DNA from: a virus | Taxonomy: Duplodnaviria > Caudoviricetes | IMG/VR virus record: IMGVR_UViG_3300046167_000167 | Coordinates: 1-53,240 of that record | Direction: 5' to 3' (one strand) | Length of the DNA: 53,240 nucleotides | Part shown: positions 22,878 to 41,545 of the stretch, in pieces | Position numbering within the stretch: the first letter of the stretch is position 1 | How the letters are laid out: each line of letters opens with the position of its first letter | Notes under the pieces: model-generated | What the model was told of the DNA's origin: nothing | Seen by the model: the letters and a program-made list of their open reading frames with translations, nothing else | The model's database searches: none | Position numbers and translations under genes: made by a program

Positions 22878-25800
22878 TGGCAAATGAAATAGATGTTGGC
22901 CTGATTAAAAAGTTTAGATCAGATGGAGCTAGTGATCAGGAAATATTAGATATCCTAGTCAAGGATGGTGGTGGGACACTCAACGTAAACGAAGATGTAT
23001 TAGACCTACAGGCTGCGATAGAAGCGGGAGTAAATTCCAGTGATCTCTTAGACTTTATCACTTCAGGTAAGCAAATTAGAGTTGACATCGACAGTGGCGC
23101 AGAGGCCGCTATAGCGGGTGCAGGTACAGGTCTAACTAACTTGATAGGCTTACCTGTAGATATATTAAATTCTACACAACAAGCCATTGAAGGTGGTGTG
23201 CGTAAGGGCATTAACTATGCGGCAGGTACAGAATTAAGTACTAATCCAGAAGACTACTTGTTCTCCAGCACCAAACCATTTGGTGGAGCCGAGTCAATAC
23301 GCAGCGGTATAGAAACTGTCGTTAATCCAGTTGAAAGAGCCGTAGGTCTTCCTGAGACTAAATTTGTCAGCCGAGAAGAAGTCCCCGATGACTACCGGGG
23401 GTACTACACTGCGGGACGGGTTGTTGGGGAAAATCTAGCTCCAACAGCAATTGCTTTAAAAGCCGCGAAGTCAGGGATTGGTCTTTCTAATCCTATGATG
23501 CAGGGCATTCGCAATAATCCCAAGGCGTTCTTAACTGGGGAAGCCGCAGCCACTACAGGTGCAGCTAGTGCAGCCGCCACCGCAGAGGTACTGGACTTTG
23601 GAGACAATCCCTATGTGATGGCTGGTGCAGAAATACTGGGCGCTCTCGTAGGCGGTAACGCCCCTACTATCGCAAAATACAGCCCCGCTTCTATGGCTTA
23701 CCAAGGAGTAAAATCTTTAGGTAATCAGGTTATGAAGGGTCTAAGTAGTGATGCCGCCCGTATGGGTGCATATGAACAAATTCTAAAGGCCGCAGATCAG
23801 GGGAGAACTTCTTTATTAAAAGAGGCGGAAGTCGCTGCTAAAAACGGAGATGCTGAACTAGCAAACTCTCTCAGGGCAGAGGCCGAGTTGTATACAGTTG
23901 AACGTATGCGATCAGATATTGAAGCTGCGCTGGCGCTTGGGGAAAATACTCCTGAAGCAGTAAGCCGTATGTCCGTAGGTAATCTAACTACAAATCCCGT
24001 ATTGCAGTCGATGCAAAAAGAGATGATGGGACAAAGCCCTCAGTTTAGACAAGAAACTATGAATACGGCTAATGAAGCTATCTCAGGTATTCTGGAGGTA
24101 TCTGAATTATTGGCACGGGCAGGTAACACTGCCGCTGCACAGGCACTCAGGACACGGGCCTACTCCTCTATGATTGATGCTACCCTAGCCAATGCCACTG
24201 GTAATGTAGCAGAGGCTATGAAGGCTGTAATGGGTTCAGACAAAGCGGCTGCATCCGTACTGGCGCAGAAAACTTTGTTTAGCGCAAAAACCAATATGCG
24301 CGAGATGGAGACTTATCTATGGGGCCGCATAGACGGTGGTCAGGTAGTATCTGGTGACGCCATCTCAGAAGTTATTGATAAAATCTATAGTGATAAGCTT
24401 TTGGACGGTATGACTATTGCTGGCGGCGGTCAGATTGATGAGGCCATCAATGCAATGAGCCAGAAAATTAAATCTGGTAAAGGTCTTTCCGTATCCGAAA
24501 TTTTAAAGTTCCGTTCTATTATGCTCTCCAACTCAAGGAAGGCTGGTGCTTCAGATGACTACTTCCAAGCAGGTCTATTCGATGAACTTGCTGGTGCAGG
24601 TATCGATGAGCTTAATAAGCTGGAAGGTGCTGCCGGGGATGCCGTTGACCTAGCCCGTGGATTTAGTGTTCAGCTTAACAAAAGGTTTACTAGGTATTTT
24701 ACTAAAGATGCTCTCTCAACCGAGAAGCTTGGCGGTACAAGTATTAGAGATAGTGAACTACTTGAAGAAGGTTTCAATGCCGGAGGAGATCAGGCCAACA
24801 ACAAGTTTCAAGACTTACGAGAGGCCTCTGAGTTCCCAGACGAAGTAGCTCCCGGTGTAGACGCAATACGCGCCCGTGATGCGGCTGATGCAGATGCTGG
24901 AAGTTTACCTGCACCAGAGGGTGGTCCCACAGGCGGTAGAGATGTAGCCACTAATGAAGGTGTAATTTACCCAGAGAATACTTCTTATCCAACAGGACAA
25001 GCTGGAGAAGGATTTACTACCGACGATGGCACAGTAATATTCCCTCCCGAAGGTTCTCAAGACGGCTCAAGATTGGATGAGATGTTTAATCGTCCCGATG
25101 GAGCTACCTATAATCGTAATACTGCGGAAGCCCCTGACGAAGAGTTTGTCCTAAACGAAGGCGGTGACCCTAACCAGCAAGCCCTTACTACTGAGGCTGA
25201 CAATACTCCTATAAGTCTAGGGGATGATATGTCGGCAGCGCAGGAAGAGTTTCTACGAGGTAAGGTTAGAGAGCTTGCTGGCATAGACAATGTCATTACG
25301 CCGGAAGCTTTGACCACCTTTATGGAAAATAACCAGAAGCTGATTGCTGAGTTCCCTAACCTTCGGGATGATATACTATCCATACATGATGCACAAAGAA
25401 CTGCCGACAGACTTGTGGAAGACCTAAGCTTGGCTGCTAACAACGAAAAACTACCAGAGGCTATTGGTCAGGCTCTCGCTACAAACACCCCAATAGAAAC
25501 TTTTAGTAAGTTGGCTAAGGAAGCTATTACTCCTGACGCTAAAATAGATTTCCGAAACGCTGCAATGGATGAGTTATTTAGAGGTGCTGTTAAAAGTGAC
25601 GGTAGCCCTGATATGCTCAAGATATCTGAAAACCTTTTAAAGCCTGTCAGTGGGCGCAAGGGAGATGTCAACGTATTAGATGTCATGGTAAGCAACGGCA
25701 TTCTAGAAGCTAGTGAGATGGAAGCTATAGTTAACTTACTCAGCGAAGGATTGGTAATTGAAAAGAGTATACGAGATCCTAAGATCTTTGATAGAGCTAT

Positions 25801-26323
25801 TGCAGAGACCCCAGACATCCAGAAAAACATTGCTCGACTAGCTGGTGCTAACGCTGGTGTACTGTTTGGCTCTGGTAATGCCAGCCTACAGGCAGCGGCC
25901 ATTGGTTCTGCATTCTTCAAGAAATACATCGATCAGTTTCCTTTAGGTAAACAGGCTGTAGAAATGCAAAATCTACTTAAACAGCCGAAGCTGCTTGCCA
26001 GTATGTTCTCCAAAAACCCGACACTAAGGAAGACCGCGTTCCAATCTGCAAAAGAGTATTCGTTGAGGTTGAAAGAACTAGGTATCTCCGGCTCAGTTTC
26101 TGCCGCATCATCCGCTGCGGTCAATAAAGTAGGAGAAAGTATGAGTACTATGCGCACTGCCTATCCCAGTGCCGTCACAGGTAATACTCAAGATCAGACA
26201 AACCCAACAGTAAGCATAGACGATCAAATGATGGACTTGAACCTTGTAAATGCACCAACTGCTTACGATGTTTTTGGTGAAGGTAACCCGCTAATCTATG
26301 ACGGAAACGGAAATGCACGATAA
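22877..26323 (+). CDS. large internal virion / ejection protein
   Basis: 1148 aa, Ala/Gly-rich helical; last gene of the structural arm. Confidence 0.7.
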   Translation: MANEIDVGLIKKFRSDGASDQEILDILVKDGGGTLNVNEDVLDLQAAIEAGVNSSDLLDFITSGKQIRVDIDSGAEAAIAGAGTGLTNLIGLPVDILNSTQQAIEGGVRKGINYAAGTELSTNPEDYLFSSTKPFGGAESIRSGIETVVNPVERAVGLPETKFVSREEVPDDYRGYYTAGRVVGENLAPTAIALKAAKSGIGLSNPMMQGIRNNPKAFLTGEAAATTGAASAAATAEVLDFGDNPYVMAGAEILGALVGGNAPTIAKYSPASMAYQGVKSLGNQVMKGLSSDAARMGAYEQILKAADQGRTSLLKEAEVAAKNGDAELANSLRAEAELYTVERMRSDIEAALALGENTPEAVSRMSVGNLTTNPVLQSMQKEMMGQSPQFRQETMNTANEAISGILEVSELLARAGNTAAAQALRTRAYSSMIDATLANATGNVAEAMKAVMGSDKAAASVLAQKTLFSAKTNMREMETYLWGRIDGGQVVSGDAISEVIDKIYSDKLLDGMTIAGGGQIDEAINAMSQKIKSGKGLSVSEILKFRSIMLSNSRKAGASDDYFQAGLFDELAGAGIDELNKLEGAAGDAVDLARGFSVQLNKRFTRYFTKDALSTEKLGGTSIRDSELLEEGFNAGGDQANNKFQDLREASEFPDEVAPGVDAIRARDAADADAGSLPAPEGGPTGGRDVATNEGVIYPENTSYPTGQAGEGFTTDDGTVIFPPEGSQDGSRLDEMFNRPDGATYNRNTAEAPDEEFVLNEGGDPNQQALTTEADNTPISLGDDMSAAQEEFLRGKVRELAGIDNVITPEALTTFMENNQKLIAEFPNLRDDILSIHDAQRTADRLVEDLSLAANNEKLPEAIGQALATNTPIETFSKLAKEAITPDAKIDFRNAAMDELFRGAVKSDGSPDMLKISENLLKPVSGRKGDVNVLDVMVSNGILEASEMEAIVNLLSEGLVIEKSIRDPKIFDRAIAETPDIQKNIARLAGANAGVLFGSGNASLQAAAIGSAFFKKYIDQFPLGKQAVEMQNLLKQPKLLASMFSKNPTLRKTAFQSAKEYSLRLKELGISGSVSAASSAAVNKVGESMSTMRTAYPSAVTGNTQDQTNPTVSIDDQMMDLNLVNAPTAYDVFGEGNPLIYDGNGNAR

Positions 26324-26325
26324 GC

Positions 26326-26362
26326 AAAAAAAGAAACCCCCGCCAACCAAAGCAGGGGTTTC
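26326..26362 (-). terminator. intrinsic terminator on the minus strand
   Basis: GAAACCCCUGCU-UUGGUU-GGCGGGGGUUUC-U7; the two G.U pairs form only on the minus strand. Confidence 0.85.
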
Positions 26363-26400
26363 CAACCAACGAACAAGGCGACCAATCTTTAGCCCTATTC
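26326..26400 (-). ncRNA. candidate ~75-nt trans-acting antisense sRNA (or processed 3' UTR of the replication operon)
   Basis: Minus strand: TTGACC-17-TAAATT upstream; body AAAGAUUGGUCGCCUUGUUCGUUGGUUGG is complementary to early-gene leaders; 12-bp terminator stem with UUGGUU loop and U7 tail. Confidence 0.55.
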
Positions 26401-26406
26401 GAAATT

Positions 26407-26435
26407 AATTTAGTGTTTTTATGCTCTCAGGTCAA
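26407..26435 (-). promoter_or_regulatory. candidate sigma70 promoter for the sRNA
   Basis: TTGACC (26435-26430), 17 nt, TAAATT (26412-26407). Confidence 0.5.
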
Positions 26436-26455
26436 GTGATCTGGGGGCTTTTTTT
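26423..26455 (+). terminator. intrinsic terminator ending the structural arm
   Basis: GCTCTCAGGTC-AAGT-GATCTGGGGGC hairpin followed by T7. Confidence 0.8.
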
Positions 26456-26472
26456 ATAAGAAAATAAGATAT

Positions 26473-28377
26473 TTAAGCAGAGATATCTACTAATTCACAA
26501 CTGTCTCCACTACACGCCATAGTCTGCATAGCGACAGTAGTATCTTCCTTTTCGTAGTTCGATAAGTCCGCCCAATTAATCTTTTCAGGCATAACAGATA
26601 GGAGAGTTTCATAGTCAGTTTTAGAACAATCTTGGTACGGTGGTTGCTGGTAAGTATGTTCAGCAAATGGCAGAAAGCTAACCCCACTCATTTCATCAAA
26701 ATTCTTATAGACAAATGTTCCCACATCAAACCACTCATTTTTTTTGACGTTGATAGTTACGCTTGGTTTATGTTCCGCAAAATGCCTCTGGTACATCAGC
26801 CACATTTCAAGCTGCTCAATAGCCGTCATATCTGCGGTGCAGACCGCTCCTTCAGGAGACTTAACTGGAAAGCTGAATACAGTCGTTTGATCCGGCTTAA
26901 ACGCCTCTGGCTCATTGGGAATCCCTTGATCTTTCATAAACTGTGTTAGTGGGTCTTTGTTATCACCACGAACAGTACGAATATAATAGGGGCTGTGCCT
27001 AGCATGAATACCAGAGGCGGAATCAACAAGTTGTGAAACCGTGCCGGAAGGCTTAACGCAAGTGATAGCAGCAGCGACAGGGATGCCAAGGCGTTCAGCC
27101 CACTCAGCATTAGTGTTAATAGCAACATCTTTTAAATGCCTCAAAGTTTTATCAAGTCCACTATTAGCGGTAGTCATTAGAGGGTTATCCATAATACCTG
27201 TGAGGCTGACACCAAGCAGACGCTCATCTGAGGTATTCTTTTCCCATATCTTCCGTAAGTAGGGAAACTTTGTATAGGTAGCCTGTATAGTACCTAAGAT
27301 CGTAGCTAGGCGTACCTTCCGCTCTAAGTCTTTCAGCGTATCTGTAGCCCGGATTACTACTTCACTGAGGTTGCAAAACTGACTTGGTAATAAAATTATT
27401 TCAGAACAAGGGTTTGTACCAAATTCTGCATCTGATTTGCGGCGACCATTTAGACCTGCCTGCACCTTTGCTGCCTGTCGATTGAAGATGCCCCGTTCAC
27501 CTGAACCGGACTCCACCAGAGCCATCCACTCACGCATAAATGACATACTGTCAGGCTTCTCAGAGTAGGCCACAGAGTTGTTAGCCAGCCCTCGATGCGG
27601 ATTTTGCTCATACCACTTACCGCTCTTGGCGTGGCGCATACGGTCATCTGACAAATTACTTAATGAAATCATTGCACTACGACGAACGCCGCCTACGACT
27701 ACTATTTCACCGACCTTACACATGAGGTCATGGCACTCAATCGAAGACAGTTTACGACCTTGTGCTTCCTTAAAAGTGCTAACTGCAAAGTTAAACAGAT
27801 CGATCAGAGGAGCGGGTCCAGATGCCCTGCCCCCAAAGGTTTTAAGCCGCGCCCCCGCTGGCCGTACCTTTTCAACATTCCACTTAGGAATTTCACCAGC
27901 CCAGAGGAGTGCCAGAACTTGCCTGAAAGCCTTAGCCCAGCCTTCCTTACTGTCCTTAACCATGACGATAGTGTCGCTGTCGAAGAGTGTAGGGACTTCG
28001 GGAAGTTTATCGATGCACTGACGCTCTACACTGAAGCCCACCCCAGTTCCGCACAGCAAGATGAACATAGCCTCATCGAAGGCCTTCGGGTCATCTACGG
28101 CTAGGTAGCTACAGTTATACATACAGGTGTTATCCCGCGCTGCCGCTGGACCCGCTGTCATTAGTGACCGCATACTGGGCATTACCTCCAGACTGAGGAT
28201 AGCCTGTTCGATATCTTTTATGTAGCTATCGTCACCCGCAACAGGTTTTACGATGTTTTCCATGTAGCGAGATACTGTCTCACCCCAAGTCTCCCGGCGA
28301 CCTTCTTCCTCAATCCACCGTGCGTAACGGCTGGTTGCGATAAAGGTTTGATAATCGGTTGGTAAATAGTTATTCAT
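26473..28377 (-). CDS. nrdJ: class II (adenosylcobalamin-dependent) ribonucleotide reductase
   Basis: 634 aa; PSMRSL, NCSY, GVGFSVE, VVGGVRRSAMI, TNPCSEI, TCVKPSGTVSQL, C-terminal CSGDSC; no nrdB gene present. Confidence 0.9.
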   Translation of the reverse strand: MNNYLPTDYQTFIATSRYARWIEEEGRRETWGETVSRYMENIVKPVAGDDSYIKDIEQAILSLEVMPSMRSLMTAGPAAARDNTCMYNCSYLAVDDPKAFDEAMFILLCGTGVGFSVERQCIDKLPEVPTLFDSDTIVMVKDSKEGWAKAFRQVLALLWAGEIPKWNVEKVRPAGARLKTFGGRASGPAPLIDLFNFAVSTFKEAQGRKLSSIECHDLMCKVGEIVVVGGVRRSAMISLSNLSDDRMRHAKSGKWYEQNPHRGLANNSVAYSEKPDSMSFMREWMALVESGSGERGIFNRQAAKVQAGLNGRRKSDAEFGTNPCSEIILLPSQFCNLSEVVIRATDTLKDLERKVRLATILGTIQATYTKFPYLRKIWEKNTSDERLLGVSLTGIMDNPLMTTANSGLDKTLRHLKDVAINTNAEWAERLGIPVAAAITCVKPSGTVSQLVDSASGIHARHSPYYIRTVRGDNKDPLTQFMKDQGIPNEPEAFKPDQTTVFSFPVKSPEGAVCTADMTAIEQLEMWLMYQRHFAEHKPSVTINVKKNEWFDVGTFVYKNFDEMSGVSFLPFAEHTYQQPPYQDCSKTDYETLLSVMPEKINWADLSNYEKEDTTVAMQTMACSGDSCELVDISA

Positions 28378-28805
28378 TAATTGGTCTCCACTAAGTGTTT
28401 TAAATTTGCTGGTTTATAATTCGGTCCCTTTAGAACTTTCCCTGAAGAGTTCTTTAGAGGTTTTCCGTCTACGCCTAATTTGCTCATGTTTGAGGCCATA
28501 ACTAAGCGGAAGCCTTCTTCTACATCCCACCCATACGTCACGCAGTAACCAATTACGGTAACCAAAATATCCATCAGTTCCTTGAACATATTTGCGGGAT
28601 TATTTTGGCTACAGCTTTCATCAAAAGCCTCTCCGTATTCCTCTTGAATTAAACCCCAGCGGAAATCCTCTAGGTCTTTATCTTTAAGCCACGGCTGGTT
28701 GATCGGCTGATCCATGCGTAGGGCAAAGTCAGTCACAAGTTGCTGCATGGTGGATAAAGGCGGGTTGTATACTTTAAAGGCGTCAATATCCTCCTGTGTA
28801 ATCAT
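28377..28805 (-). CDS. MazG-like nucleotide pyrophosphohydrolase
   Basis: LIQEEYGE..KELMDIL..VMASNMSKLG..GKVLKGPNY; likely start is ATG 28805 overlapping the upstream stop. Confidence 0.85.
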   Translation of the reverse strand: MITQEDIDAFKVYNPPLSTMQQLVTDFALRMDQPINQPWLKDKDLEDFRWGLIQEEYGEAFDESCSQNNPANMFKELMDILVTVIGYCVTYGWDVEEGFRLVMASNMSKLGVDGKPLKNSSGKVLKGPNYKPANLKHLVETN

Positions 28806-29044
28806 TTTTCTATCTCCTGAATTAATCGGTCTAAGTACCAGCGGCATTTTTTGAGATCTTCTAGGCCGTTTTTGTATGGCCATCTCCAGAGGTACTTAAA
28901 AACAGTCTGCCAACAGTGCGCCTGATGCGGAGTTACTAAGACTTTAGGGGGTATTGTACCGCCTTCAGTCATAGCCTTCATGGCGTCGATGCACTCAATG
29001 GTATGATTGTAGTGGGACGGGCTGTTCACCATATCCGAAGCCAT
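28802..29044 (-). CDS. DUF3310-like protein (T7 gp1.7-related nucleotide kinase family)
   Basis: DMVNSPSHY..IECIDA..KYLWRWPYKNGLEDLKKCRWYLDRLI. Confidence 0.85.
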   Translation of the reverse strand: MASDMVNSPSHYNHTIECIDAMKAMTEGGTIPPKVLVTPHQAHCWQTVFKYLWRWPYKNGLEDLKKCRWYLDRLIQEIEK

Positions 29045-29385
29045 CAGTGTAGCTTCTTCTTAAAAGCTAATACGTTATCATCTGAATTTAGACGCATGGC
29101 ATCCAGAAGCTCTTCGGAAGGCTCAAAGGTTACTTCTAGGCCGTCCCTGTCTTCATAGAGTTCGTCTTCCAGCATAGATATTCTACGCAAAAGCCTGCCC
29201 GTGATTACAAACTCCTCAAGAGTTGTATTCAGTTTAGCCATCAGGCCGTTGCACAGGTCTAAGTAGAAGGTTTCCTGTTCGTCAGACATCGAAGAGCTAA
29301 GGCTCTCATTTAAAGACACCTCAAGAAGATCATCGTCTTGATCTACGGTCATAGTAATTTGAATTGTATTCTCAGGAAGTTTCAT
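29044..29385 (-). CDS. hypothetical acidic protein
   Basis: 113 aa, translationally coupled to both neighbours; ends DDNVLAFKKKLH. Confidence 0.7.
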   Translation of the reverse strand: MKLPENTIQITMTVDQDDDLLEVSLNESLSSSMSDEQETFYLDLCNGLMAKLNTTLEEFVITGRLLRRISMLEDELYEDRDGLEVTFEPSEELLDAMRLNSDDNVLAFKKKLH

Positions 29386-29738
29386 TTCTTGCCTTTTTTC
29401 GTTAGTTTGAAAAAATGCTCCGCGTCCATAACAGCTAAGGGCTTTTGACGGTCACCCTTAATTATAGCTATTGGCTCTGCACCCTTGGGGCAGTTCTCTG
29501 CCGCCTGATCCATCACCTTGTAGATGGCGAATGACTTGAACGCTTTGCACTCGATTGAATATGGAAATAGGCGTCTGGCGGCGGGACTTAGTTGTACGTC
29601 TTCGCCGCCAGCACCCATAGAAGTGCTTCTGACATCGTCGGGGAGGAGTGCTTTAGGAAACAGGGATAGTATCTTATCCCTAACCCATTGCTGATGTCTT
29701 CGGCCCTTCGCCTTGGCACTTGAGGTTTTTATCGCCAC
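29382..29738 (-). CDS. PD-(D/E)xK endonuclease, putative Holliday junction resolvase
   Basis: SAKAKGR..GEDV..YSIECK motifs. Confidence 0.75.
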   Translation of the reverse strand: MAIKTSSAKAKGRRHQQWVRDKILSLFPKALLPDDVRSTSMGAGGEDVQLSPAARRLFPYSIECKAFKSFAIYKVMDQAAENCPKGAEPIAIIKGDRQKPLAVMDAEHFFKLTKKGKK

Positions 29739-30501
29739 TTGGGGAGTTCAAGGATCGAATACTCGCCCCAGCCCGTGCCAAAATCTTCCTTATCGGTTGC
29801 CTCTTTTATCGTAGCCAACACCTTGTGCATATTCTCGGTAGCATTATCCAATAAGTTGGGGCTTACGATATGCATATGGCTGGCATAGGGGGCCGCTTTT
29901 TCCACGGCAATGAACTTAAATTTGTCCACAGAAATACCCGCCATTCGACAGGTATAAATGTAGAAGGCTGCTTGTATGTCGTAGGAGTACTTCCAGCACT
30001 CTTTAGCAAATCCAAGGGGACTAGCGTCTTGAGTGGTCTTAACATCGTACACAGCTCCCTCTGAGGGTATGTAGAGGTCTGGTCGGGTCTTCAGCACTAG
30101 CCCAGTGCGTTCACACTCTGCAAAGATAGAGACTTCATTTTGACGATCCTTGTGGCGCAAAGCCTTCTTGCACACAGGGTTCTTCAGTGTCTCTGTCGCC
30201 ATACGATGAGCTACATGGTATTCTACTTCAGTCAGGACAATCTGATCAGGACCAGCATTCTCTTCCAACTCAGTAAAACCTTTAGACTTCCTAGTCTTTG
30301 GTCCCTTTGACAACAAGGTCACGATCTTCTTCTAGTAAGAGGGCGTGTACCGCTGACCCCATAGAGAAAGCTGCCGTCTGTCCTGCGTTTCTCGCCCTTC
30401 CAGTGGGCAAGAGACTTTTTAAATACCGACTTAACTGCGGTTGAAGAAATACCATTCTGTGAATGGTACTCCTCATTAGACATATTTTCTATTATGCCCA
30501 T
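29729..30501 (-). CDS. PD-(D/E)xK exonuclease (RecE / ExoVIII, DUF3799-like), split by two one-base frameshifts
   Basis: MSNEEYHS..ISST, then AFSMGSAVHALLLE, then KTRPD..DVKTT..YDIQAAFY..FIAVEK lie in three successive frames; extra bases near 30382 and 30305. Confidence 0.8.
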
Positions 30502-31325
30502 TATACGCGGTAGTCTTCGGCGAGAGTATCAACGGCATCCATAATACGATCAGCTTCAGCGAGATCTTCTTTCTGTGCTACTGCTTCACGATACTGTTCC
30601 TCTATACTCTTGTTCTCTGAAGTAATTAGATTTGTAACGTGAGCGAGGCTGTCGTAAGTAAGTTGATCCATAGGGATTGGACTGTTAAACGTAGGATGGA
30701 AGTGCATAACATAGAACTTCTTACCATAAGAATTTGTCAGTGTTGCCTTTGACAAGATGCTTTCAAAATCCCAGAGGTTCATACCCTGCGGCAGCTTTTT
30801 TACTACATCGTGGTAGAAAGGACCGAAGTTCTTAATCTTGCCTTCAAAAACACAAGGCTGGTTCTCAATGGTGACTTCACGACCATCTGTTGTCTTTCCA
30901 GTGTAACTTATAAGACCTCTAACAATTCTATACTTGGCCCTACCTTCAAACTTTTTCTTCTCCTCTGGAGACATTGCAATAGATTCTTCATAGGTGGGTA
31001 CGTTACATCGTAAGCCTCCCAATTGATCCCGCGCTTCATCGTTATTTTCATTTCTAATCAATAGAGATTTATTGATTAATTTATTGTCATCACCCCAATG
31101 TCTAAACTGGATATGGTTACTAAAAGCACGAAATCTTACATTTTCCGTGGCATATGCCTGATCTTGCTTGGTCTTCAAAAAGAATGCACCCATTGGACCG
31201 TTGTCGCCATCATAATTCATTTTTAACTCAGGGATGCTTGGCCCTGTTGATGTTGATGCAGCGCCTAGTTGTGCGCTAATTTCTGCTAACGATAAGCCGT
31301 TTTCTTGTACTACTAGTTCAGTCAT
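30501..31325 (-). CDS. putative ssDNA-binding or recombination protein
   Basis: 274 aa between polymerase and exonuclease; acidic C-terminus; function inferred from position. Confidence 0.5.
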   Translation of the reverse strand: MTELVVQENGLSLAEISAQLGAASTSTGPSIPELKMNYDGDNGPMGAFFLKTKQDQAYATENVRFRAFSNHIQFRHWGDDNKLINKSLLIRNENNDEARDQLGGLRCNVPTYEESIAMSPEEKKKFEGRAKYRIVRGLISYTGKTTDGREVTIENQPCVFEGKIKNFGPFYHDVVKKLPQGMNLWDFESILSKATLTNSYGKKFYVMHFHPTFNSPIPMDQLTYDSLAHVTNLITSENKSIEEQYREAVAQKEDLAEADRIMDAVDTLAEDYRV

Positions 31326-31349
31326 AACTCTTCCTCAATTTGGTCTCTC

Positions 31350-31378
31350 ATTATACGACAGTTAGGTGGCGTAATCAA
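31350..31378 (-). promoter_or_regulatory. sigma70-type internal promoter
   Basis: TTGATT-17 nt-TATAAT upstream of the 31325 start; the spacer contains CACCTAACT. Confidence 0.7.
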
Positions 31379-33528
31379 GCATATTCCTGTTGCTCTAGCC
31401 AATTTGGTCCGCCGCTGATTTCTATGTCTAGAGGCACAATTGTCTTGTACCCAAACCGCTTCTCAGCCTCTTCCCCGACACCTGTCATGGCCTCAGTCAG
31501 GATAGATTTTACTTGCTCAATCTCATCTGGATGAGTGTCCACGCAAATTGAATCGTGGACGGTAAGAGTAAGTTTGCTGCGTAAATCTGCTTGTTTAAAC
31601 AGTTTAAATGCTCTTATGCAGGCTAATTGCACAAGATCGGCGCTGAAGCCCTGCACCGGGTAATTAAGAATTTGGGTTGCACTAGTCACCCTGCCGTTCT
31701 TAGTTCTCTCAACATTAGGCCAGAAATATTGACGGCCACTAGGTGTCTCTACAGTTCCATTCTTGAGTGTTCCTGTCATCAGAGATTGATGCCAGCCGTA
31801 TATACCTTCGTAGATACCGTAGAACCTGTCGAAGTACGCCTTTATGTGGTCCGGCATACCAAATCCTGTACCCCCAAAAAGAGGCTGGAACGATGCCCAC
31901 TTATGACCTTGGCGTTCATCCTTTGTCACATGAGAGGCTGGCTTTTTAAGACATATACTGGCGGTCTGTCTGTGGATGTCCTTGCCCTCAAGAATATCGG
32001 CAAGACCTTGGCTATCTCTCGACAGTTCGCAAGCCGTCCTAAATTCAAGGCCTGAGTAGTCGGATTCAATCCATATACCGTTTTCAAATCGACTGATGAA
32101 ACACTTCCTTACCGGGAAACCTCTCTTCGGTTGATTTTGTAGGTTGATTGACATCCCGCCGCCGGAGGAAAGCCTACCAGTGGCAGCTACACACTGATTG
32201 AAGTTGGCGTGAAGGAAGCCCGTGTTTCTAGTTCCTCGCTGGATACCTGCCACAAAGCTATCTAAATACACAGACAGCGCACTGAGCCGACTGATCTTAG
32301 TCAGAAACTCTACTGCTATATCATTCTTCTTACGCTCTGCCTGAAGTATAAGGCCTTTGATGGTTTCCTTATCAGTCTTAAAGCCATTGATGCTGGCGTC
32401 GAAAGCGGTACTGGGTGACATTCTCAGGCCAGCGGCAACACCAGTGCTTTGGTATATTGCACCAGCACCCGTACAGGTCTTGCACTTAGTCCTGTTCTTA
32501 TAAGGTTCGTCAGTCTGAACCCGGTACTTCTTACCCAACTTTATTTTGGTTTTGACTTTGTACTTTTGTATCGAACCCATGCCGTTGCAGTCATGGCACT
32601 TGATCGCCCTAGTCTTGTGGACGATTTTAGTGGTTGCCCTGACAGCATCAACAAACTGGGATTGGGTCATAAAGGGTGGCCTGAGTGACTTACCCGCCTC
32701 GTTAGTTCCGATATTGAAGGTCTGTTGGTGAGCTTCCCGGCTGATTACCTCACGCGAGTAGACCACCTTGGTCATGTCCGCTCCGCTATTTAAATTAATA
32801 GGTGTATCACCCATTACCATTTCAACGATCTCATTCAGCCGCTTCTCTAATATCTCCTTCTCAGATTCAAACTCACGCTCAACTTCCTCAAGCGCGTCTA
32901 AGTCAACCTTCACGCCATTCATTTCTATCTCACATAGAAACAGAAGCATCTCATGCATGAAGGGTATTACTTTTTTAAGTGACTGATTATGCTCACGCTC
33001 AAGTATAGGGAGTTGTGCGAGGTATAGCTCTCCACAGGCCTTTACGTCTGCTTCGGCATATTCGTTAACAACTTCCAGAGGCATCTCTGAGAAGTCTACG
33101 CCATCCCTGAACATCTCATCAATTAACTCAGACTTCTTCAGACTTTTAACTTGGCGTCTGATGGCACTCTCTTTTAAAGAGAGCGGCCTACGCTGACCCT
33201 TGGCAAGTAAGTACTCGACTATCATGGTATCGTATACGATAGGCGGTAAAGTGAACCCCATCTCTTGTAGCCACTCAGCATCGAACTTCGTATTGTGGCA
33301 GACCATCATATCCGCTGACAGTAAGTCCGCCCGCAGTTCGTCCGTAGGATCACATCCTTCGTAGTCCTTGTGATACCAGACAGCTTTCTTAACGTGATCT
33401 ACTGTATCTTCACCTAGCCAGCCCCAGTAACCCGACACACACTTGTTGCGTGGGTTCTTTGGGCTGTTGTCTATTCTACCTTCGATGCGTTCTACCGTTG
33501 TTTCTAAATCTAATACTAATATCTTCAA
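31375..33528 (-). CDS. family A DNA polymerase with 3'-5' exonuclease and a DnaJ-like zinc-finger insertion
   Basis: ExoI DLETT, HNTKFD, TGRLSS, NLQNQP, motif A DYSGLEFR, NYPVQG, motif C TVHDSI; insert CHDCNGMG...CKTCTGAG. Confidence 0.95.
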   Translation of the reverse strand: MKILVLDLETTVERIEGRIDNSPKNPRNKCVSGYWGWLGEDTVDHVKKAVWYHKDYEGCDPTDELRADLLSADMMVCHNTKFDAEWLQEMGFTLPPIVYDTMIVEYLLAKGQRRPLSLKESAIRRQVKSLKKSELIDEMFRDGVDFSEMPLEVVNEYAEADVKACGELYLAQLPILEREHNQSLKKVIPFMHEMLLFLCEIEMNGVKVDLDALEEVEREFESEKEILEKRLNEIVEMVMGDTPINLNSGADMTKVVYSREVISREAHQQTFNIGTNEAGKSLRPPFMTQSQFVDAVRATTKIVHKTRAIKCHDCNGMGSIQKYKVKTKIKLGKKYRVQTDEPYKNRTKCKTCTGAGAIYQSTGVAAGLRMSPSTAFDASINGFKTDKETIKGLILQAERKKNDIAVEFLTKISRLSALSVYLDSFVAGIQRGTRNTGFLHANFNQCVAATGRLSSGGGMSINLQNQPKRGFPVRKCFISRFENGIWIESDYSGLEFRTACELSRDSQGLADILEGKDIHRQTASICLKKPASHVTKDERQGHKWASFQPLFGGTGFGMPDHIKAYFDRFYGIYEGIYGWHQSLMTGTLKNGTVETPSGRQYFWPNVERTKNGRVTSATQILNYPVQGFSADLVQLACIRAFKLFKQADLRSKLTLTVHDSICVDTHPDEIEQVKSILTEAMTGVGEEAEKRFGYKTIVPLDIEISGGPNWLEQQEYA

Positions 33529-33671
33529 AACGGCGGCTCCCCATTAGCATCGAGCGCAGGCATCTTGAATGAGTAGTCACGATCTACTGGCTTCTGTTTA
33601 GGGGTGGGATTAATTACGCCTACTTCGGATAGAAGCAGCGCAAGTTGCGGGGGTAAGATCTCACACTTCAT
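33525..33671 (-). CDS. 48-aa hypothetical protein (not in the ORF track)
   Basis: MKCEILPPQL...DANGEPPF; start overlaps the helicase end and stop overlaps the polymerase start. Confidence 0.6.
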   Translation of the reverse strand: MKCEILPPQLALLLSEVGVINPTPKQKPVDRDYSFKMPALDANGEPPF

Positions 33672-34878
33672 ATCGAGAGGTCTGCGCATTGAGATTACAA
33701 ATTACTGTGCCGTGCCATCCACTGATCTTATTCTTCATCACAGTAAGATACCGTGTGGGATCGTCTGGGTTATCTGCATCGTTCATTTTACCAGCACCTA
33801 TCAAGATGTCGGTCTCTGCAATCTTACCTACCTTCGATCCCTCAAGCATAGTGGGAGTAAGCCGTGTCTTACCCTCTGCCTCTGCACTCGCCTGACTAAG
33901 ACCAATTAATGCACAGTTGTGTTTTTTGGCTAACTCCCGCAGACGATAGTACAGTTCTCGCAGTCTTTCGTGACCACTATTAAATTGCTGTGTAAGAGCA
34001 ATCTTATCGGCCATGTCTAGAATACATACGCCGCACTGTTGTTTGTTTAAGTATGCGTCCAGCATCTGGATGTCCCAGCCTTGGGCGTCAGCAAACACTA
34101 AGCGGTCCTTGATTCCTGAGTACCGGGCTTGCGCTGCGTGAGGATCGAACTCTATTTCGTCCTTGGTCATTCCAGTGTACGCTTGTATAGCCCTCAACTT
34201 AGTGCGTTTGGCTACTTCTTCGTTTGCCACATAACAAACTTTGGCATTTTGCTGACAGAAACCTCCCGGGGATGCACACAGAGAGATGGCTAAGGCAGTC
34301 TTACCTACGTTTGAATACGCTGCAATGACACCAAACTCACCTCGACCAATACCGTAAACATGACGGCTCAAGGTCTCTATGTTGAATTTGAATCTGTTGT
34401 CGTTGCTTACTACTGACAGTAGCTCATAGATATCGTCGGTCACATCCTCGCCAAAATCATCTGGCATATAGCCGTTTGATACCCGGTCTACTAAAGTGAC
34501 CAGCTTATCCATCGCCCCAGTGTCACCTTCGGACATCATTATGCCAAGGTTGGCTACGTCTGTACCGATGTGCTGACGCCATAGGTTTTCTATAACGTCT
34601 GTTGCTATTTCTGCGTCTATTGTCTCCGCGTTATTTATGCAGTTGATCTGGTCTTCAATCTCAGCGGTCCACGAACCCGTCGATGTTGGGTTCTGCGCCT
34701 TCCAAAATGCAAACAACTCCAAGGAGCTAATGTCCTTGTTGAATTTATCGTGCATGGTTACGATTGTTTGGTACACATCCTTTACTGCATCGTCGAATAT
34801 ACTTGGTCTCAGCTTTGCCTTGTTTTGATTATAGAAATCAACATCGAGGCAGCTTTTTATGAGTGATTGGTCTATCAT
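33661..34878 (-). CDS. DnaB-like (SF4) replicative helicase
   Basis: Walker A AYSNVGKT, Walker B ILDMAD, LSQAS, KNKISG; likely start ATG 34878. Confidence 0.9.
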   Translation of the reverse strand: MIDQSLIKSCLDVDFYNQNKAKLRPSIFDDAVKDVYQTIVTMHDKFNKDISSLELFAFWKAQNPTSTGSWTAEIEDQINCINNAETIDAEIATDVIENLWRQHIGTDVANLGIMMSEGDTGAMDKLVTLVDRVSNGYMPDDFGEDVTDDIYELLSVVSNDNRFKFNIETLSRHVYGIGRGEFGVIAAYSNVGKTALAISLCASPGGFCQQNAKVCYVANEEVAKRTKLRAIQAYTGMTKDEIEFDPHAAQARYSGIKDRLVFADAQGWDIQMLDAYLNKQQCGVCILDMADKIALTQQFNSGHERLRELYYRLRELAKKHNCALIGLSQASAEAEGKTRLTPTMLEGSKVGKIAETDILIGAGKMNDADNPDDPTRYLTVMKNKISGWHGTVICNLNAQTSRYEV

Positions 34879-34929
34879 TAGTTGGCCTTTTAAATTGCTC
34901 GATGACGCCACCTTATAGAATGTTTTAAG

Positions 34930-34960
34930 CAAAAAAAAGCCCCACCAAGAAGGTGAGGCC
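34930..34960 (-). terminator. terminator-like hairpin upstream of the helicase
   Basis: GCCTCACC-TTCTT-GGTGGGGC followed by a T-run on the minus strand. Confidence 0.6.
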
Positions 34961-34991
34961 AATTTAATTTATAAGCAGTTGATTTTGTTCG

Positions 34992-35198
34992 TTAGTTTGA
35001 TCTAAACTTCATTTTAGACAAATTTACTGAGCCGGGAGGTCCACGGCGCTCACGCAACTCCACTTGGTAGTGGACTATGCGTTTGTTACTTTCACAATAA
35101 TCTTTGATTAGTTTTTCCAGTGCATCCTCTTCGATGCCTGCTTCTCGGAAACCACCTTCGATTTCCATATCCATGATCGCTATTCCGCGTGCTTTCAT
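34992..35198 (-). CDS. hypothetical protein
   Basis: 68-aa ORF between primase and helicase, followed by a terminator. Confidence 0.6.
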   Translation of the reverse strand: MKARGIAIMDMEIEGGFREAGIEEDALEKLIKDYCESNKRIVHYQVELRERRGPPGSVNLSKMKFRSN

Positions 35199-35388
35199 TG
35201 TACCATTCCCTTTGCTTTAACGTCTGTACTGGTATCGTAGACGAATATTTTTTCACGCAGCGGATTGACTGCGCCCCCATATTTTTATTTCAGTTTATTG
35301 AGGGGGAGCCTGATGAGGATTTTGCCAGCTTGATGGCTTCTCCCCAAACTGGGCGCAGGTATAAATAACACCTGACGTATTATTGGTT

Positions 35389-36156
35389 TTAATAATCACA
35401 ATTAAGTACCTTAGTTATTCGTTTAACTGATAGGCACTTTAGATCCTCGCTTGTGAGTCTTACAAATAGCTTAGTTCCAAGCGCCTTACTAATGCGTAAT
35501 GCCTTTTTAGATGCATCCTTGTCAAGAACTAAATATTTTGTGGAATATAAATGCAGAGAATTTTTAATTGCTGGAGTGACATTAGTACCAAGCAACGCCA
35601 CACCAACTAATCCATCAATCCGACTCACACTACAGGCGCTAGGGGCATCCTCAACTAAGACTGCGGTTTCACCTGTACCAATGTGTATTCCTTCGGGAAG
35701 TGATCCATATGTAATCCACTTAGGTCCGTATGCTTTGAGTGATCTACCTACTGCACCTTCTCCATTACAGAATAACACCCGGTCTTCAGCGGGAGCATAT
35801 CGGACATCTACCAAACCGCTTTCGTATGCTTCTAGGCTGTTGTTCTTTTCTAGGTAGTCGATGGCTGGTTGATGGTTTCTGACTGATGTAGTCATCGAAG
35901 GTACAGGCTTTCTAAAAGCAGTCTTCATGCTAACTTCATTTGCTAGATAGTTTTTGACTGCCTGAAGGTTACGTTTACCTGTGTAAATTCCTTTGGCAGA
36001 GCAACTGGCTCTGTAACAGTTCCACATTAACTTACCATCAATCTTTGATAGAGCTAACTTCTTTGGTTGATAGCAAAATGGACAGGTTATTACTTTTGTA
36101 ACACCTTCTTGGATAGGTATATCTTTTATTATCTGTAGTTGTTCTTGATAGGTCAT
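35389..36156 (-). CDS. DNA primase (zinc-binding plus TOPRIM)
   Basis: CPFC...WNCYRASC zinc domain; LVEDAPSA, ALLGT, LDKDA TOPRIM motifs. Confidence 0.9.
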   Translation of the reverse strand: MTYQEQLQIIKDIPIQEGVTKVITCPFCYQPKKLALSKIDGKLMWNCYRASCSAKGIYTGKRNLQAVKNYLANEVSMKTAFRKPVPSMTTSVRNHQPAIDYLEKNNSLEAYESGLVDVRYAPAEDRVLFCNGEGAVGRSLKAYGPKWITYGSLPEGIHIGTGETAVLVEDAPSACSVSRIDGLVGVALLGTNVTPAIKNSLHLYSTKYLVLDKDASKKALRISKALGTKLFVRLTSEDLKCLSVKRITKVLNCDY

Positions 36157-36199
36157 TTACTAGCCGTTGGTTATACTGCCCCTCCAAAGGGACAGCGTC

Positions 36200-36227
36200 A
36201 GCTTATACAGATTACTAAACCTGTCAA
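36200..36227 (-). promoter_or_regulatory. candidate promoter for the primase operon
   Basis: TTGACA (36227-36222), 16 nt, TAAGCT; preceded directly by AATTAGGTG. Confidence 0.5.
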
Positions 36228-36331
36228 CACCTAATTAAATGCTTTTGTAAATGTTTTACCACGCCACTTAAAGTTAGTAGGTATTTATAATAATCGTTAA
36301 TTTATCGTTTAAATACAATACTTCCTACCAC

Positions 36332-36369
36332 TCAATTGGTCGTAGGTTCGATCCCTACCGCCGGAGCCA
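36332..36369 (+). other. attP core matching the 3' half of a host tRNA (probably tRNA-Asn)
   Basis: TCAATTGGTCGTAGGTTCGATCCCTACCGCCGGAGCCA = anticodon-stem 3' strand, T-arm GGTTCGATCC and acceptor strand plus CCA, with no 5' half; near a tyrosine integrase. Confidence 0.85.
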
Positions 36370-36470
36370 TTTGTTTATATAACAGTCACTTACCTCAGTA
36401 ATGTAGAAAAAATGGCATGGCAGAATGCATCGTGGCAGTCTGCCATTTCTACCATTTTTTCAAAGGTAAC

Positions 36471-37220
36471 TTACTGATTCTCACGCTCTTTAGCTCGTTG
36501 GCGTTCTTCGGCAGTCATTGATCGGATGGTAGGATACTCTTTTCCCATCAACGCGGCCCACGATACGGGAAACAATTCTTCCATATATTCGCTGATCTTA
36601 TTGGCTACCACCCGGCTCTCATACTGGGTGTCATGGGCGCAACGAAGCTTACACATCTTGCTCACGGCCTTCAGGCTACCTGACCACACCCAAGAGCTTA
36701 ACATCGACTGAGGAAGCAGCATACGGGCTTGCTCTGCGGCAACGCCTTGGGCAATCATCTTTCTGTAATCACCCAAGCACTTTTCATGTATCTCTTTAGC
36801 GTAAATATTGGGAAAGTACTGGGACTCTGCCGCACCGCTGGACCCTTGCTTTGAGTTTTTAGGTTTACCACGCCATTCGTCTGGAGTGTAGAACTCAGGG
36901 TCGGTGTCGATGTAGCGGCGGCTGACCTGATTCCAAGGCATATACTCATGTTTCTGAAGTTGGGCGATACAGAATACAGGGGCCGTGCATCTGAAGGTTA
37001 CAAATGCGTGGTTAAAGGGACTGTAGTGTTGGTGATCAGCTAAGTACTTAATAAGTTTTTTATCACTGTCGTGGATGACGGGTATCATATTACTATCTGA
37101 TGAACCTGTGTAGCCCAAAGCTACACTTTTCTTGTCGTAACTGACCCTCGCCGCATCTACCACTGATAGATCGTCGCCAGTGTGTCGCACATACTCTACA
37201 GTTATTTGTTCTACACCCAT
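36471..37220 (-). CDS. thyX: FAD-dependent thymidylate synthase
   Basis: VVDAARVSY, HYSPFNH, QLQKH..WNQVSRRY, EQARMLLPQS, LRCAHDTQYE. Confidence 0.9.
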   Translation of the reverse strand: MGVEQITVEYVRHTGDDLSVVDAARVSYDKKSVALGYTGSSDSNMIPVIHDSDKKLIKYLADHQHYSPFNHAFVTFRCTAPVFCIAQLQKHEYMPWNQVSRRYIDTDPEFYTPDEWRGKPKNSKQGSSGAAESQYFPNIYAKEIHEKCLGDYRKMIAQGVAAEQARMLLPQSMLSSWVWSGSLKAVSKMCKLRCAHDTQYESRVVANKISEYMEELFPVSWAALMGKEYPTIRSMTAEERQRAKERENQ

Positions 37221-38348
37221 TTATAGTAATCCTCTTTTAGTATTAGCTGCGGTACTTTCAGTCTCGCCCTCGATTGCGTAGACTACTAGCATCGAAGGGT
37301 TCTTGTGGCCTGTGAGGGACATCAACTGTCTGTCAGTACATCCTGATTGGCTTGCATGGGTTGCTCCAGTGCGCCGTAGGTCAGACATCCAGATTGTCGA
37401 ATACTTTTGACTGCCATCTTTGTTGAATTGTCCCTCTAAGGCGACTTCAGGTAGACCGTAGCCATCAGCCATCTTTCGGAAGATCTTGTTGCATCTATCC
37501 TGCGTGAACGGCTTGCCAGTATTTTCGTTGGCGAAGATGTAATCGTCTGAATTACGCTTGGCGTGAAGGTGCAGACGATCTTGTACAGCATTGGTGACCT
37601 TAATACGCATCTGCTTTCCTGTCTTTTGCTGGGTAAAATTAGACACTCCAGTAAGCCCATCAATGTTGGCCCACTTCATCGATCGTACATCAACAGGACG
37701 CTGGCAGAACTCAAAGCACATACGGATCATAGTACCCATGCTATAGAAGCCTTGTTCGTCACAGTACTCAATCATCCCGTCGATTTGATCTAATTCCCAT
37801 AAGACCCGACGAACAGGAAGTTGCGGAAGCTTGACCAATGCAAACGGGTTAGCCTTGACCTTCCCTGCGCGGAGAGCTTCGTTCCAAATGATCTTTAGAA
37901 CCTTGAAGGTGTGGTTAGCTTTGTGTGTACTGATCTTATTAGCTATGTGTAGCCACAGTGCGTTAGCATATTCGTAGTCAACGTCTGACACATGAAGTTT
38001 ACCAAAAGGTTTACCAGTAACGTGTTCGGGTAGAACGTGCCTGATGTGGTCATCGTATGACCGCTTGGTAGAAGGACTAGCTATAGTCTGAAACTTCATG
38101 GAATTTTTATAATATTCAGTCAGAGCTTCGACTGACCGTTTATCTACAAATACATCCTCGACATTACCTGCCTTCCAAGCTTCAAACTTACGTTTCAGTT
38201 CATACCCACGGGCGTTAGCCTCGGCGCTGTCAGTAAGTGTGTCTCGCTTTAGATCTGGGAACGCTCTGAGTAGTTCGTCGGTGGGCCTGATGTCATAGAC
38301 GCGGGTGTTACCTTTCATTCGAGGGCGGACATAGGGAGCTTTAGCCAT
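37221..38348 (-). CDS. int: tyrosine recombinase / integrase
   Basis: CQRPVDV (R), QQKTG (K), SDLRRT, GHKNPSMLVVY (H..Y); likely start ATG 38348. Confidence 0.9.
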   Translation of the reverse strand: MAKAPYVRPRMKGNTRVYDIRPTDELLRAFPDLKRDTLTDSAEANARGYELKRKFEAWKAGNVEDVFVDKRSVEALTEYYKNSMKFQTIASPSTKRSYDDHIRHVLPEHVTGKPFGKLHVSDVDYEYANALWLHIANKISTHKANHTFKVLKIIWNEALRAGKVKANPFALVKLPQLPVRRVLWELDQIDGMIEYCDEQGFYSMGTMIRMCFEFCQRPVDVRSMKWANIDGLTGVSNFTQQKTGKQMRIKVTNAVQDRLHLHAKRNSDDYIFANENTGKPFTQDRCNKIFRKMADGYGLPEVALEGQFNKDGSQKYSTIWMSDLRRTGATHASQSGCTDRQLMSLTGHKNPSMLVVYAIEGETESTAANTKRGLL

Positions 38349-38628
38349 TAGACAGACCCTTTCTGTAGTCTTGCCAAAGCAGACTGTAGGAGATTTCGTG
38401 GTACTGGCAGTAGCCGATAGCAGCATACATAGTCTTTGCATCCGTACTATCGTCTATCTCTGCATAGATACCGTCTTCCCGCATTTCTAACGTGAACCAG
38501 TAGTTCTCATCATCGTGCCAGTGTAGCTGAGTAGCTTCCTTAGTGGTGCTACAGTGCATTTGACCAATAACCTCAGTCAGACCGCCAATAGACCATATAA
38601 ACTTGCTGAATACTGCTTCCTTAGACAT
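38341..38628 (-). CDS. hypothetical protein bracketed by 20-bp direct repeats
   Basis: MSKEAVFSKFIW...; overlaps the integrase start. Confidence 0.7.
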   Translation of the reverse strand: MSKEAVFSKFIWSIGGLTEVIGQMHCSTTKEATQLHWHDDENYWFTLEMREDGIYAEIDDSTDAKTMYAAIGYCQYHEISYSLLWQDYRKGLSNG

Positions 38629-38878: not shown

Positions 38879-38957
38879 GTTATTGGTCCTTGTTGGTTGG
38901 TTAACAGGGCCATCTAACAAATAAGTTAACAGGCAGTCAAGTAAAAGTTAACAGTCA

Positions 38958-38983: not shown

Positions 38984-39009
38984 ATTTCCCCACGCGAACT
39001 GGTGTATAT

Positions 39010-41522: not shown

Positions 41523-41545
41523 TTAGACACTAATTTCTCCCAACT

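Follow-up and report, generated by a model that had tools for sequence, protein, structure and literature searches.

A probable minus-strand small RNA gene at the convergent junction of an HMO-2011-type roseophage genome, with complementarity to a family of early-gene leaders

The DNA analyzed here, the 53,240-base virus record IMGVR_UViG_3300046167_000167 (the window in what follows), has 46.6% G+C and two convergent arms, and is the genome of an integrase-bearing HMO-2011-type roseophage. Of the phages in culture, Roseobacter phage CRP-738 is its closest relative; CRP-738 has an identical layout and is counted among the HMO-2011-type isolates (PMC9038755). Between the tail-fiber-like gene at the end of the late operon and the RNR gene at the end of the replication arm lies a short spacer, the minus strand of which carries a promoter-like sequence followed by a foldable RNA that ends in an intrinsic terminator (Table 1). 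We consider it very probable that this is a real, undescribed phage small RNA (sRNA) gene and that a functional minus-strand RNA exists. Two segments left exposed in the predicted fold of this RNA are complementary to a family of leaders on early genes. The reading that we prefer, with a probability of roughly 0.55, is that the sRNA would act in trans as an anti-leader repressor of the early regulon.

The earlier note, made from the letters of the window, had described on this strand TTGACC and TAAATT boxes spaced by 17 nt, a 75-nt RNA and a terminal U7, all of which lie where it placed them. The RNA is predicted to fold into a first stem-loop (SL1), a single-stranded linker and a second, terminator stem-loop (SL2), with a minimum free energy of -34.4 kcal/mol (z -5.24), a stability equaled in 0/200 shuffles. 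The plus-strand counterpart folds at only -19.0 kcal/mol (z -3.69). Unpaired in the predicted fold are the SL1 loop UAAAGAUUGGUC and the GUUGGUU(GG) of the linker. SL2 is the best terminator-like site of the 19 found in 25500-45400. Taken by itself, the promoter-like match is no more than chance would give (17 sites versus 29.9 expected in the region). An Rfam 15 scan of the whole window gave 0 matches at the gathering score, the best sub-threshold match being the rnk leader (27.7 bits against a threshold of 55).

Table 1. Coordinates of the junction, the predicted sRNA and the sequences that match its exposed modules (positions in the window; ddG, free-energy change on cofolding with the sRNA)
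Feature	Position	Strand	Remarks
Plus arm	~39.4 kb, through the record ends, to the 1148-aa tail-fiber-like gene ending at 26323	+	Late operon end
Minus arm	From 38878 to the end of the RNR gene at 26473	-	Encodes tyrosine integrase, ThyX, DnaB-like helicase and DNA polymerase A
Spacer between tail-fiber-like gene and RNR gene	26324-26472 (~150 nt)	both	Two crossed intrinsic terminators
Plus-strand intrinsic terminator of the late (tail-fiber) operon	26423-26455 (hairpin 26423-26448, then T7)	+	Beyond the sRNA gene; sRNA -35 box within its loop and stem
sRNA promoter, sigma-70-type	-35 TTGACC 26435-26430; 17-nt spacer; -10 TAAATT 26412-26407	-	Sequence match
Predicted sRNA body, ~75 nt	26400-26326	-	SL1, single-stranded linker, terminator SL2, U7 tail; 5' end inferred from the -10 box
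SL1	26371-26400	-	9-bp stem GAAUAGGGC/GCCUUGUUC closing a 12-nt loop; 3' arm with anti-Shine-Dalgarno CCUU
SL1 loop UAAAGAUUGGUC, exposed module 1	26380-26391	-	Complementary to leader module GACCAAUC(UUU)
Linker UCGUUGGUUGG, single-stranded, exposed module 2	26362-26372	-	Complementary to leader module CCAACCAAC
Minus-strand intrinsic terminator SL2	26326-26363 (stem 26363-26332, 13 bp, loop UUGGUU; U7)	-	Sole minus-strand terminator after RNR
Leader of the gene heading the integrase/replication arm (85 aa, ATG 38878), AACCAACCAACAAGGACCAATAAC	38879-38902	-	7 loop + 9 linker matches
Leader of a 60-aa early gene (ATG 39509)	39485-39508	+	8 loop + 8 linker matches; ddG -11.6
Leader copy upstream of the DUF932 gene (ATG 40019)	39972-39998	+	Best-matching: 11 loop + 9 linker matches
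Leader of an 86-aa early gene (ATG 41809)	41780-41808	+	8 loop + 9 linker matches; ddG -12.5
Leader of the DUF7168/DUF2786-like gene (ATG 42405)	42372-42404	+	8 loop + 9 linker matches; ddG -16.1, best of 66 start regions
Short match at RNR, GGAGACCAAT	Before ATG 28377		Sequence match
Short match at helicase, GACCAATC	Just after ATG 34878		Sequence match
Short match at primase, AACCAACG	Before ATG 36156		Sequence match

Diverged relatives retain the promoter, two covarying stem-loops and the U-tail, which bears out the idea of a discrete minus-strand sRNA gene. Against 50,697 phage records, blastn matched only CRP-738, at the syntenic junction (E 6e-7). Among 80 IMG/VR loci anchored on RNR, the unit directly follows this gene in the three closest (95, 90 and 83% RNR identity); within 400 nt downstream of RNR the sRNA motifs are absent from the other 77, nine of which, read individually, have a different sequence at that place. 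Exact-seed scans of IMG/VR recovered the sRNA unit in 26/70 matches of CCTTGTTCGTTGGTTG and in 15/26 matches of CCTTGCTAGTTGGTTG. Altogether, the element that the earlier note suggested looking for in relatives was found in CRP-738 and 41 IMG/VR loci.

One of the 28 distinct 139-nt extracts (L127) was a chance match, and 21 of the remaining 27 variants were aligned. The six others (L132, L142, L146, L172, L181 and L192), which differ from the included rows only at a few flank positions, were left unaligned, and the truncated L099 lies outside the set; MAFFT misaligned the 5' part of several variants. TTGAC, the GG of SL1, the loop TGGT, CCTTG and GTTGGTT are invariant in 21/21 aligned variants, an invariance that is partly built in at the seed because the 41 IMG/VR loci were retrieved by exact 16-mers, 26 loci by a pattern that includes GTTGGTT. 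The flanks, promoter spacer, 5' end and stems vary widely, and a TAnAnT/A-like box lies 16-18 nt downstream of TTGAC. The makeup of an intrinsically terminated sRNA, that is, an own promoter, a body of 50-300 nt and a GC-rich hairpin with a U-run at the end, is present in all 21, with a weak U-run in some variants (L105, L117 and L119).

The RNAalifold consensus of these variants consists of SL1 and the terminator SL2. Consensus pairing holds in 95.2% of 415 cells, and five pairs are compensated, in 30 cells. Pairing or covariation scores as good were reached in 0/500 shuffles, and sliding the partner by 1-3 columns reduced pairing to 49-64%. The seven consensus pairs of SL1 are 95.9% paired, two of them with compensatory changes; in SL2, 94.8% of cells are paired and three pairs show a compensatory change. 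G.U or U.G pairs fill 41/147 SL1 cells and 56/268 SL2 cells. Because they would be A.C mismatches on the other strand, the functional, structured strand is the minus strand, in agreement with what had been noticed in the stem of the window. Furthermore, where one of the differences between the two seed types replaces U by C, the 5' arm of SL1 has a compensating change from A to G (alignment columns 64/93), which means selection on the minus-strand RNA fold. A second anti-leader seed, which the same observer had seen in the terminator loop, did not survive the comparison: UUUGGUU occurs in only 10/21 aligned variants and is absent from CRP-738.

The crossed arrangement of the two terminators is also kept, in 10/10 variant representatives folded, and in each of these the plus-strand terminator is a hairpin followed by a U-run. 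The plus-strand hairpin that holds GTCAA, the complement of TTGAC, adopts three different architectures across variants, GTCAA being nonetheless kept. Since each terminator lies past the other, convergent transcripts of the late and replication arms would overlap by ~130 nt. Late transcripts would also carry the full sRNA complement because their terminator lies beyond the sRNA gene. Read on the plus strand, the 29-mer at 26362-26390 is a further copy of the leader, unique in the window at ≤3 mismatches, which keeps every leader module including AAGG. As had been remarked before, this copy is not followed by a start codon: no ATG, GTG or TTG occurs before a stop.

The leaders themselves form a family that precedes five early genes on both strands (Table 1), with the architecture 5'-(AACC)n, Shine-Dalgarno, GACCAAUC-N2-3-AUG. 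All five matches of the earlier note exist. In the best of them, 39974-39998 aligns to the sRNA complement with the 25 matches it had counted (9+6+10), one mismatch and a 3-nt bulge. This copy ends 21 nt before ATG 40019, which has a separate AAAGGA Shine-Dalgarno, and the leader of 42405 sits within an operon with no promoter nearby. Leader module GACCAATC occurs 8 times in the window versus 1.38 expected and AACCAACC 9 times versus 1.61, counts reached in 0/100 shuffles each. All nine occurrences of AACCAACC are inside the five leaders, at 38.9-42.4 kb. The non-self sites of GACCAATC number seven: four are placed 2-3 nt ahead of a start or within the 39972 copy, and one immediately follows the helicase start. 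The 15-mer at ≤2 mismatches gave 3 occurrences versus 0.41 expected. Early-gene orthologues in several genomes carry leaders of this kind. PHROGs and Pfam assigned ten early proteins only to families of unknown function (DUF932, DUF7168 and, below threshold, DUF2786), and no protein repressor turned up in this annotation, beyond which no further search was made. A/C-rich leaders enhance translation. In our reading, the leader may be of this general type, unstructured and A/C-rich, and have come under RNA control in this clade.

Complementarity between the exposed segments of the RNA and this leader family holds as the earlier note proposed. In 5/66 predicted start regions, namely those of the five leaders, each of the two exposed modules finds ≥6 contiguous Watson-Crick matches and the modules follow each other in the correct order, with 7-11 matches to the loop and 8-9 to the linker. 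Shuffled modules matched a mean of 0.21 start regions and a maximum of 3, and 5 was reached in 0/500 shuffles. The variable part of the leader, including the Shine-Dalgarno, faces the closed arm of SL1. By prediction, the ribosome-binding sites of several unlinked mRNAs thus find a complement in a conserved single-stranded seed. When genomes were searched with their own RNA, the module test gave 8 start-region matches in the window and 8 in G003 (as many in 0/200 shuffles in both cases), 6 in G001 and 3 in G006 (3/200 each), 3 in G008 (7/200) and 3 in CRP-738 (12/200), some of these matches being artifacts of overlapping 6-mers. Only this exact two-module complementarity pattern, and not thermodynamics, sets the real RNA apart.

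The modules of RNA and leaders also differ between lineages. RNAs of the TTCG type (window, G001, G003 and CRP-738) have the loop GAUUGGUC and the linker UCGUUGG, next to leaders with ACCAAUC, often AACCAACG. G006 combines the loop GAGUGGUC and the linker UAGUUGG with leaders of the form AACCAACU...ACCACU, and G008 the loop UUUGGUUAU with leaders CAACCAACUAGGAUACAAACU and ..UAACCAA before AUG. The modules of the G006 RNA matched 3 start regions in G006 and 0-1 in other genomes, and in an alignment-score matrix the own-type orphan was best in 7/8 rows. The near-duplicate genomes G002, G004, G005 and G007 were excluded from some of the lineage counts. An integrase-anchored search for further CTAG-type genomes returned 8 loci, namely the G006 contig, five loci at 97-100% identity to it, L209 (80%) and L088 (54%), and adds little independent data. 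That RNA and leaders change together across lineages is thinly supported by these comparisons and, at most, suggested by them. Counts of 6-mers near starts were also tried as a measure of covariation and set aside as too noisy.

Several results weigh against an anti-leader repressor. First, because the five leaders copy one repeat, the module test amounts to a match to one family rather than to five independent matches; the partly built-in invariance of the seed counts on the same side. Second, pairing energies do not distinguish the RNA. Cofolding with the 66 start regions did place four family leaders and RNR in the top five (ddG -11 to -16, versus a median of -3.7), the leader of 38878 reaching just -4.6. 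In the comparison with shuffled controls that the earlier note had put forward, however, 34/55 RNAs with a shuffled 39-nt head were as good or better in the sum of the top five ddG values (real -63.6, shuffled mean -65.2), and 25/55 equaled or surpassed the single best value. In an RNAduplex scan of the genome, which had a high background (mean -17.2, standard deviation 4.2) and in which the 39972-39998 leader was the third-best non-self site, coding sites reached -36 versus -35.7 for the best leader. Hybridization energy is not taken as support because G/U-rich unstructured heads pair promiscuously.

Third, the co-varying leaders expected alongside the element in relatives are suggestive at best: T follows AACCAAC in 4/8 leader sites of CTAG-type and 4/25 of TTCG-type genomes (Fisher p = 0.074), the same-position test for G gave p = 0.64, and the leaders of the window have C where pairing with the RNA needs G. 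The shorter matches claimed near RNR, helicase and primase are present as sequences, but the RNR leader showed no covariation with the sRNA loop across variants, and RNR was dropped as a conserved target. Fourth, the leader type can exist without the RNA. Two such leaders, and no recognizable RNA, were found in G009 (L195), a 44-kb phage contig that is 92% complete, and a leader of the same style, CCAACCAACTAACAAGGAGACCAACCC followed by ATG, lies at 7509-7545 on the reverse strand of L202, a contig of an unrelated betaproteobacterial Hydrogenophilaceae metagenome-assembled genome (MAG). The latter was the one match when 185,579 species, each represented by a single genome, were scanned for prophage copies with a 19-base pattern; it is a leader-like site and not the RNA, and no prophage copy was found. 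Fifth, public RNA runs consist of assembled contigs that give neither strand nor ends of any sRNA transcript. Small shares (0.08-0.14) were in runs labeled RNA; in four of these, one metatranscriptome contig of a relative (X4) and contigs of X1, which is RNA only by guess, cover the sRNA region with no strand, ends or level, and libraries of this kind may contain DNA.

With its occurrence in the Hydrogenophilaceae MAG, the A/C-repeat leader type seems to have a wider distribution than the sRNA. In CRP-13, an HMO-2011-type relative that lacks the RNA, 1 leader of this kind was present among 38 annotated starts inspected, which counts in favor of a link between RNA and leaders. One of the leaders of G009 (939-1000, reverse strand) has at least 7 CCAA repeats, then CAACCAACTAGCAAGG and ATG. 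L088, a 4,046-nt IMG/VR contig, has two divergent leaders at 545-560 and 1104-1119 with an exact 16-mer complement of the TTCG-type seed, one of them immediately ahead of an integrase gene with 54% identity to its G006 counterpart.

The RNA could instead be real and have a mainly local job, as a cis-antisense RNA to the 3' end of the late operon or as a processed 3' untranslated region (UTR) of the RNR operon that controls stability or termination of the convergent transcripts, or it could target host mRNAs with A/C-rich leaders. Its resemblance to the phage leaders would then reflect descent from an inverted leader copy. The layout speaks for such a role, since the terminators crossed in 10/10 folded variants mean that late transcripts must hold a perfect 75-nt complement, and the minus-strand hairpin is the sole terminator after RNR; yet at the same junction of CRP-13, merely 47 nt long with one hairpin and without the RNA, a plain terminator does. 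Trans pairing energies no better than those of shuffled RNAs and the A/C-rich leaders of such style outside the clade likewise count for a local role, but it gives no account of why the exposed segments, and not the stems, match the leader modules or of why the RNA of G006 fits the leaders of G006 better than those of other genomes. On balance, we think a local or host-directed role rather unlikely.

We give less credence still to the possibility that the function resides in the leader-like copy, whether read on the plus strand or as DNA, which would serve in the late 3' UTR as a decoy or operator for a leader-recognizing protein or for ribosomes, with the minus-strand RNA incidental. This copy retains all leader modules including AAGG and changes in step with the leaders between lineages, and Pope et al. 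left open whether an RNA or a protein binds the comparable start-associated repeats of mycobacteriophages (PMC3203893). In our reading, the leaders lie just downstream of early promoters, a common place for operators, but that of 42405 is inside an operon without a nearby promoter. The conservation of the minus-strand -35 and -10 boxes, the pairing of SL1 and SL2 on the minus strand only (G.U becoming A.C on the other), the compensatory changes of SL1 and, among them, the U-to-C seed change matched by A to G are all at odds with an incidental RNA. That nothing here is regulatory, the locus being a terminator pair plus the decayed ribosome-binding site of a lost gene conserved through close kinship, would fit a plus-strand copy without a following start codon, a promoter-like match not above chance alone and public RNA contigs that show neither strand nor ends, but is very improbable given that both stems covary and that relatives heavily diverged in the spacer (RNR 83-90%; CRP-738 DNA polymerase A 76%) keep TTGAC, the SL1 pairing, loop TGGT, CCTTG and GTTGGTT.

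If the sRNA is an anti-leader repressor, its action may be pictured as follows. Host RNA polymerase would initiate it at the sigma-70-type promoter, and the RNR operon, where no other terminator is present, might also supply RNA by read-through. The transcript is predicted, with support from covariation, to fold into SL1 (9 bp, loop GAUUGGUC), the short linker GUUGGUUGG and the intrinsic terminator with its U-tail. Loop and linker, complementary in sequence to the leader modules on either side of the Shine-Dalgarno, would pair with them, and pairing on both sides would close a clamp over the ribosome-binding site. Initiation at clamped leaders would be blocked and/or cleavage triggered, and expression of the early regulon would be lowered as one set. 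Such a circuit might serve either prophage immunity or the silencing of early genes in the course of lytic growth, the two roles raised in the earlier note. Late transcription, which by the observed layout runs across the sRNA gene and its -35 box, may interfere with or occlude the promoter, and the late-operon transcripts could serve as a perfect sponge for the RNA. If true, crossed terminators combined with a sponge in late mRNAs would be an unusual coupling of an RNA regulator to the infection clock.

A more specific and doubtful extension is that the RNA is the immunity or decision factor of integrase-bearing HMO-2011-type roseophages that have no recognizable CI. Expressed constitutively from the prophage, it would silence the leader-tagged early regulon on both arms in trans and block superinfecting relatives with the same seed; in lytic growth, it would be neutralized by the late 3' UTR mimic and by promoter occlusion, with a DUF1127 protein as chaperone or maturation factor. 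The presence of an integrase in 9/9 RNA-bearing genomes that include the region fits an immunity role. Integrases occur in only some HMO-2011-type subgroups, and integration by CRP-3 has been reported (PMC9038755). Were this role true, the seed types (UCG or UAG linker; GAUUGGUC, GAGUGGUC or UUUGGUUAU loop) would mark off RNA-based immunity groups within an abundant group of marine phages.

The DUF1127 protein has 61 aa and is encoded at 45491-45676 on the plus strand of the window (Pfam 28.8 bits, cut-off 23.3), 19 kb from the sRNA gene. Homologues were detected by tblastn in 7 genomes (window, G002, G003, G001, G005, CRP-738 and G006). CcaF1, a DUF1127 protein of Rhodobacter, is reported to bind RNA and to act in sRNA maturation (PMC8034643). 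By analogy, the phage protein is a possible RNA-binding partner of the sRNA, a lead for further work.

Other features of the window were recorded along the way. Contigs from RNA libraries of several runs break at 36332-36372, with unrelated sequence on either side, which fits an attachment site or a tRNA-like segment; an ARAGORN scan of the window returned neither a tRNA nor a tmRNA. A tandem array of a 13-nt unit, CGGCTAGAGTGGA, occupies 44014-44130 within an ORF-poor stretch (ORF, open reading frame), in 7 overlapping 39-nt copies at 13-nt spacing, and a 31-nt direct repeat occurs at 43824 and 43954. Array and repeat may mark a packaging region or an origin. Immediately upstream of the integrase-arm promoter, the minus strand has a 67-aa ORF without a Pfam or PHROG match (39010-39213), followed by a terminator-like hairpin with T6 (38965-38982). 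This ORF could encode a small regulator.

No description of this RNA or of the leader was found in searches of PMC and bioRxiv. HMO-2011-type phages are a dominant and broadly distributed marine viral group (PMC9038755); in that paper, the words "sRNA", "promoter" and "intergenic" do not occur, and regulation is apparently not discussed. If true, the reading of an anti-leader repressor would provide the first regulatory RNA for this group and a regulon set by a leader tag instead of by promoters. CRP-738 and its host are both in culture.

Several known systems can be compared with the sRNA. Lambda OOP, P22 sar and lambda aQ are short phage transcripts with intrinsic terminators that overlap a convergent transcript (PMC12197685). 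These RNAs act only on the gene they overlap, whereas the sRNA of the window overlaps a noncoding 3' UTR and its exposed segments match distant leaders. The Rhodobacterales anti-Shine-Dalgarno sRNAs (CcsR) and the DUF1127 protein CcaF1 share with our system an alphaproteobacterial host group and, through the phage-encoded protein, the DUF1127 domain, but the CcsR motif, CCUCCUCCC, is absent. The CI RNA of satellite phage P4 provides immunity by RNA and not by protein, and pairs with repeated complementary sequences in phage transcripts. In being an RNA repressor that pairs with repeated phage sequences it resembles what we propose here; it differs in that CI arises by processing of the very transcript whose termination it causes, and in that it acts on transcription elongation, not on the ribosome-binding sites of several genes.

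For the leaders, the nearest parallel is the start-associated sequence (SAS) of Cluster K mycobacteriophages, a short, asymmetric and conserved repeat with a Shine-Dalgarno core, located just upstream of many non-structural start codons and co-oriented with the genes (PMC3203893). The leader repeat of the window is likewise near starts, co-oriented with its genes and confined to non-structural ones, with a different host and a sequence unlike the SAS consensus GGGATAGGAGCCC. Whether SAS is bound by RNA or protein, encoded by host or phage, was left open by its authors (PMC3203893), and no partner RNA has been described for it, whereas the phage of the window encodes a candidate one. If the proposed pairing is true, the question of what binds the start-associated repeats in phage genomes would have a concrete answer that can be tested.

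For the RNA itself, the nearest parallel is c4. This RNA of ~77 nt relies on two-segment recognition and has a model in Rfam. In P1 and P7, c4 (immI) is a small structured RNA that keeps phage genes from being translated, through loop-exposed complementary segments pairing around a ribosome-binding site (PMC12197685). The sRNA of the window, by prediction, also presents exposed segments complementary to ribosome-binding sites. Unlike c4, whose single target mRNA (ant) lies downstream in its own operon, it would act on five leaders on other transcripts, on both arms and 12-16 kb away, the sRNA gene being at 26.4 kb and the leaders at 38.9-42.4 kb on separate transcription units. The sRNA has no Rfam match, and host and phage type also differ. 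By this analogy, the sRNA would work like the c4 RNA of P1 and P7, and it is not a member of that family.

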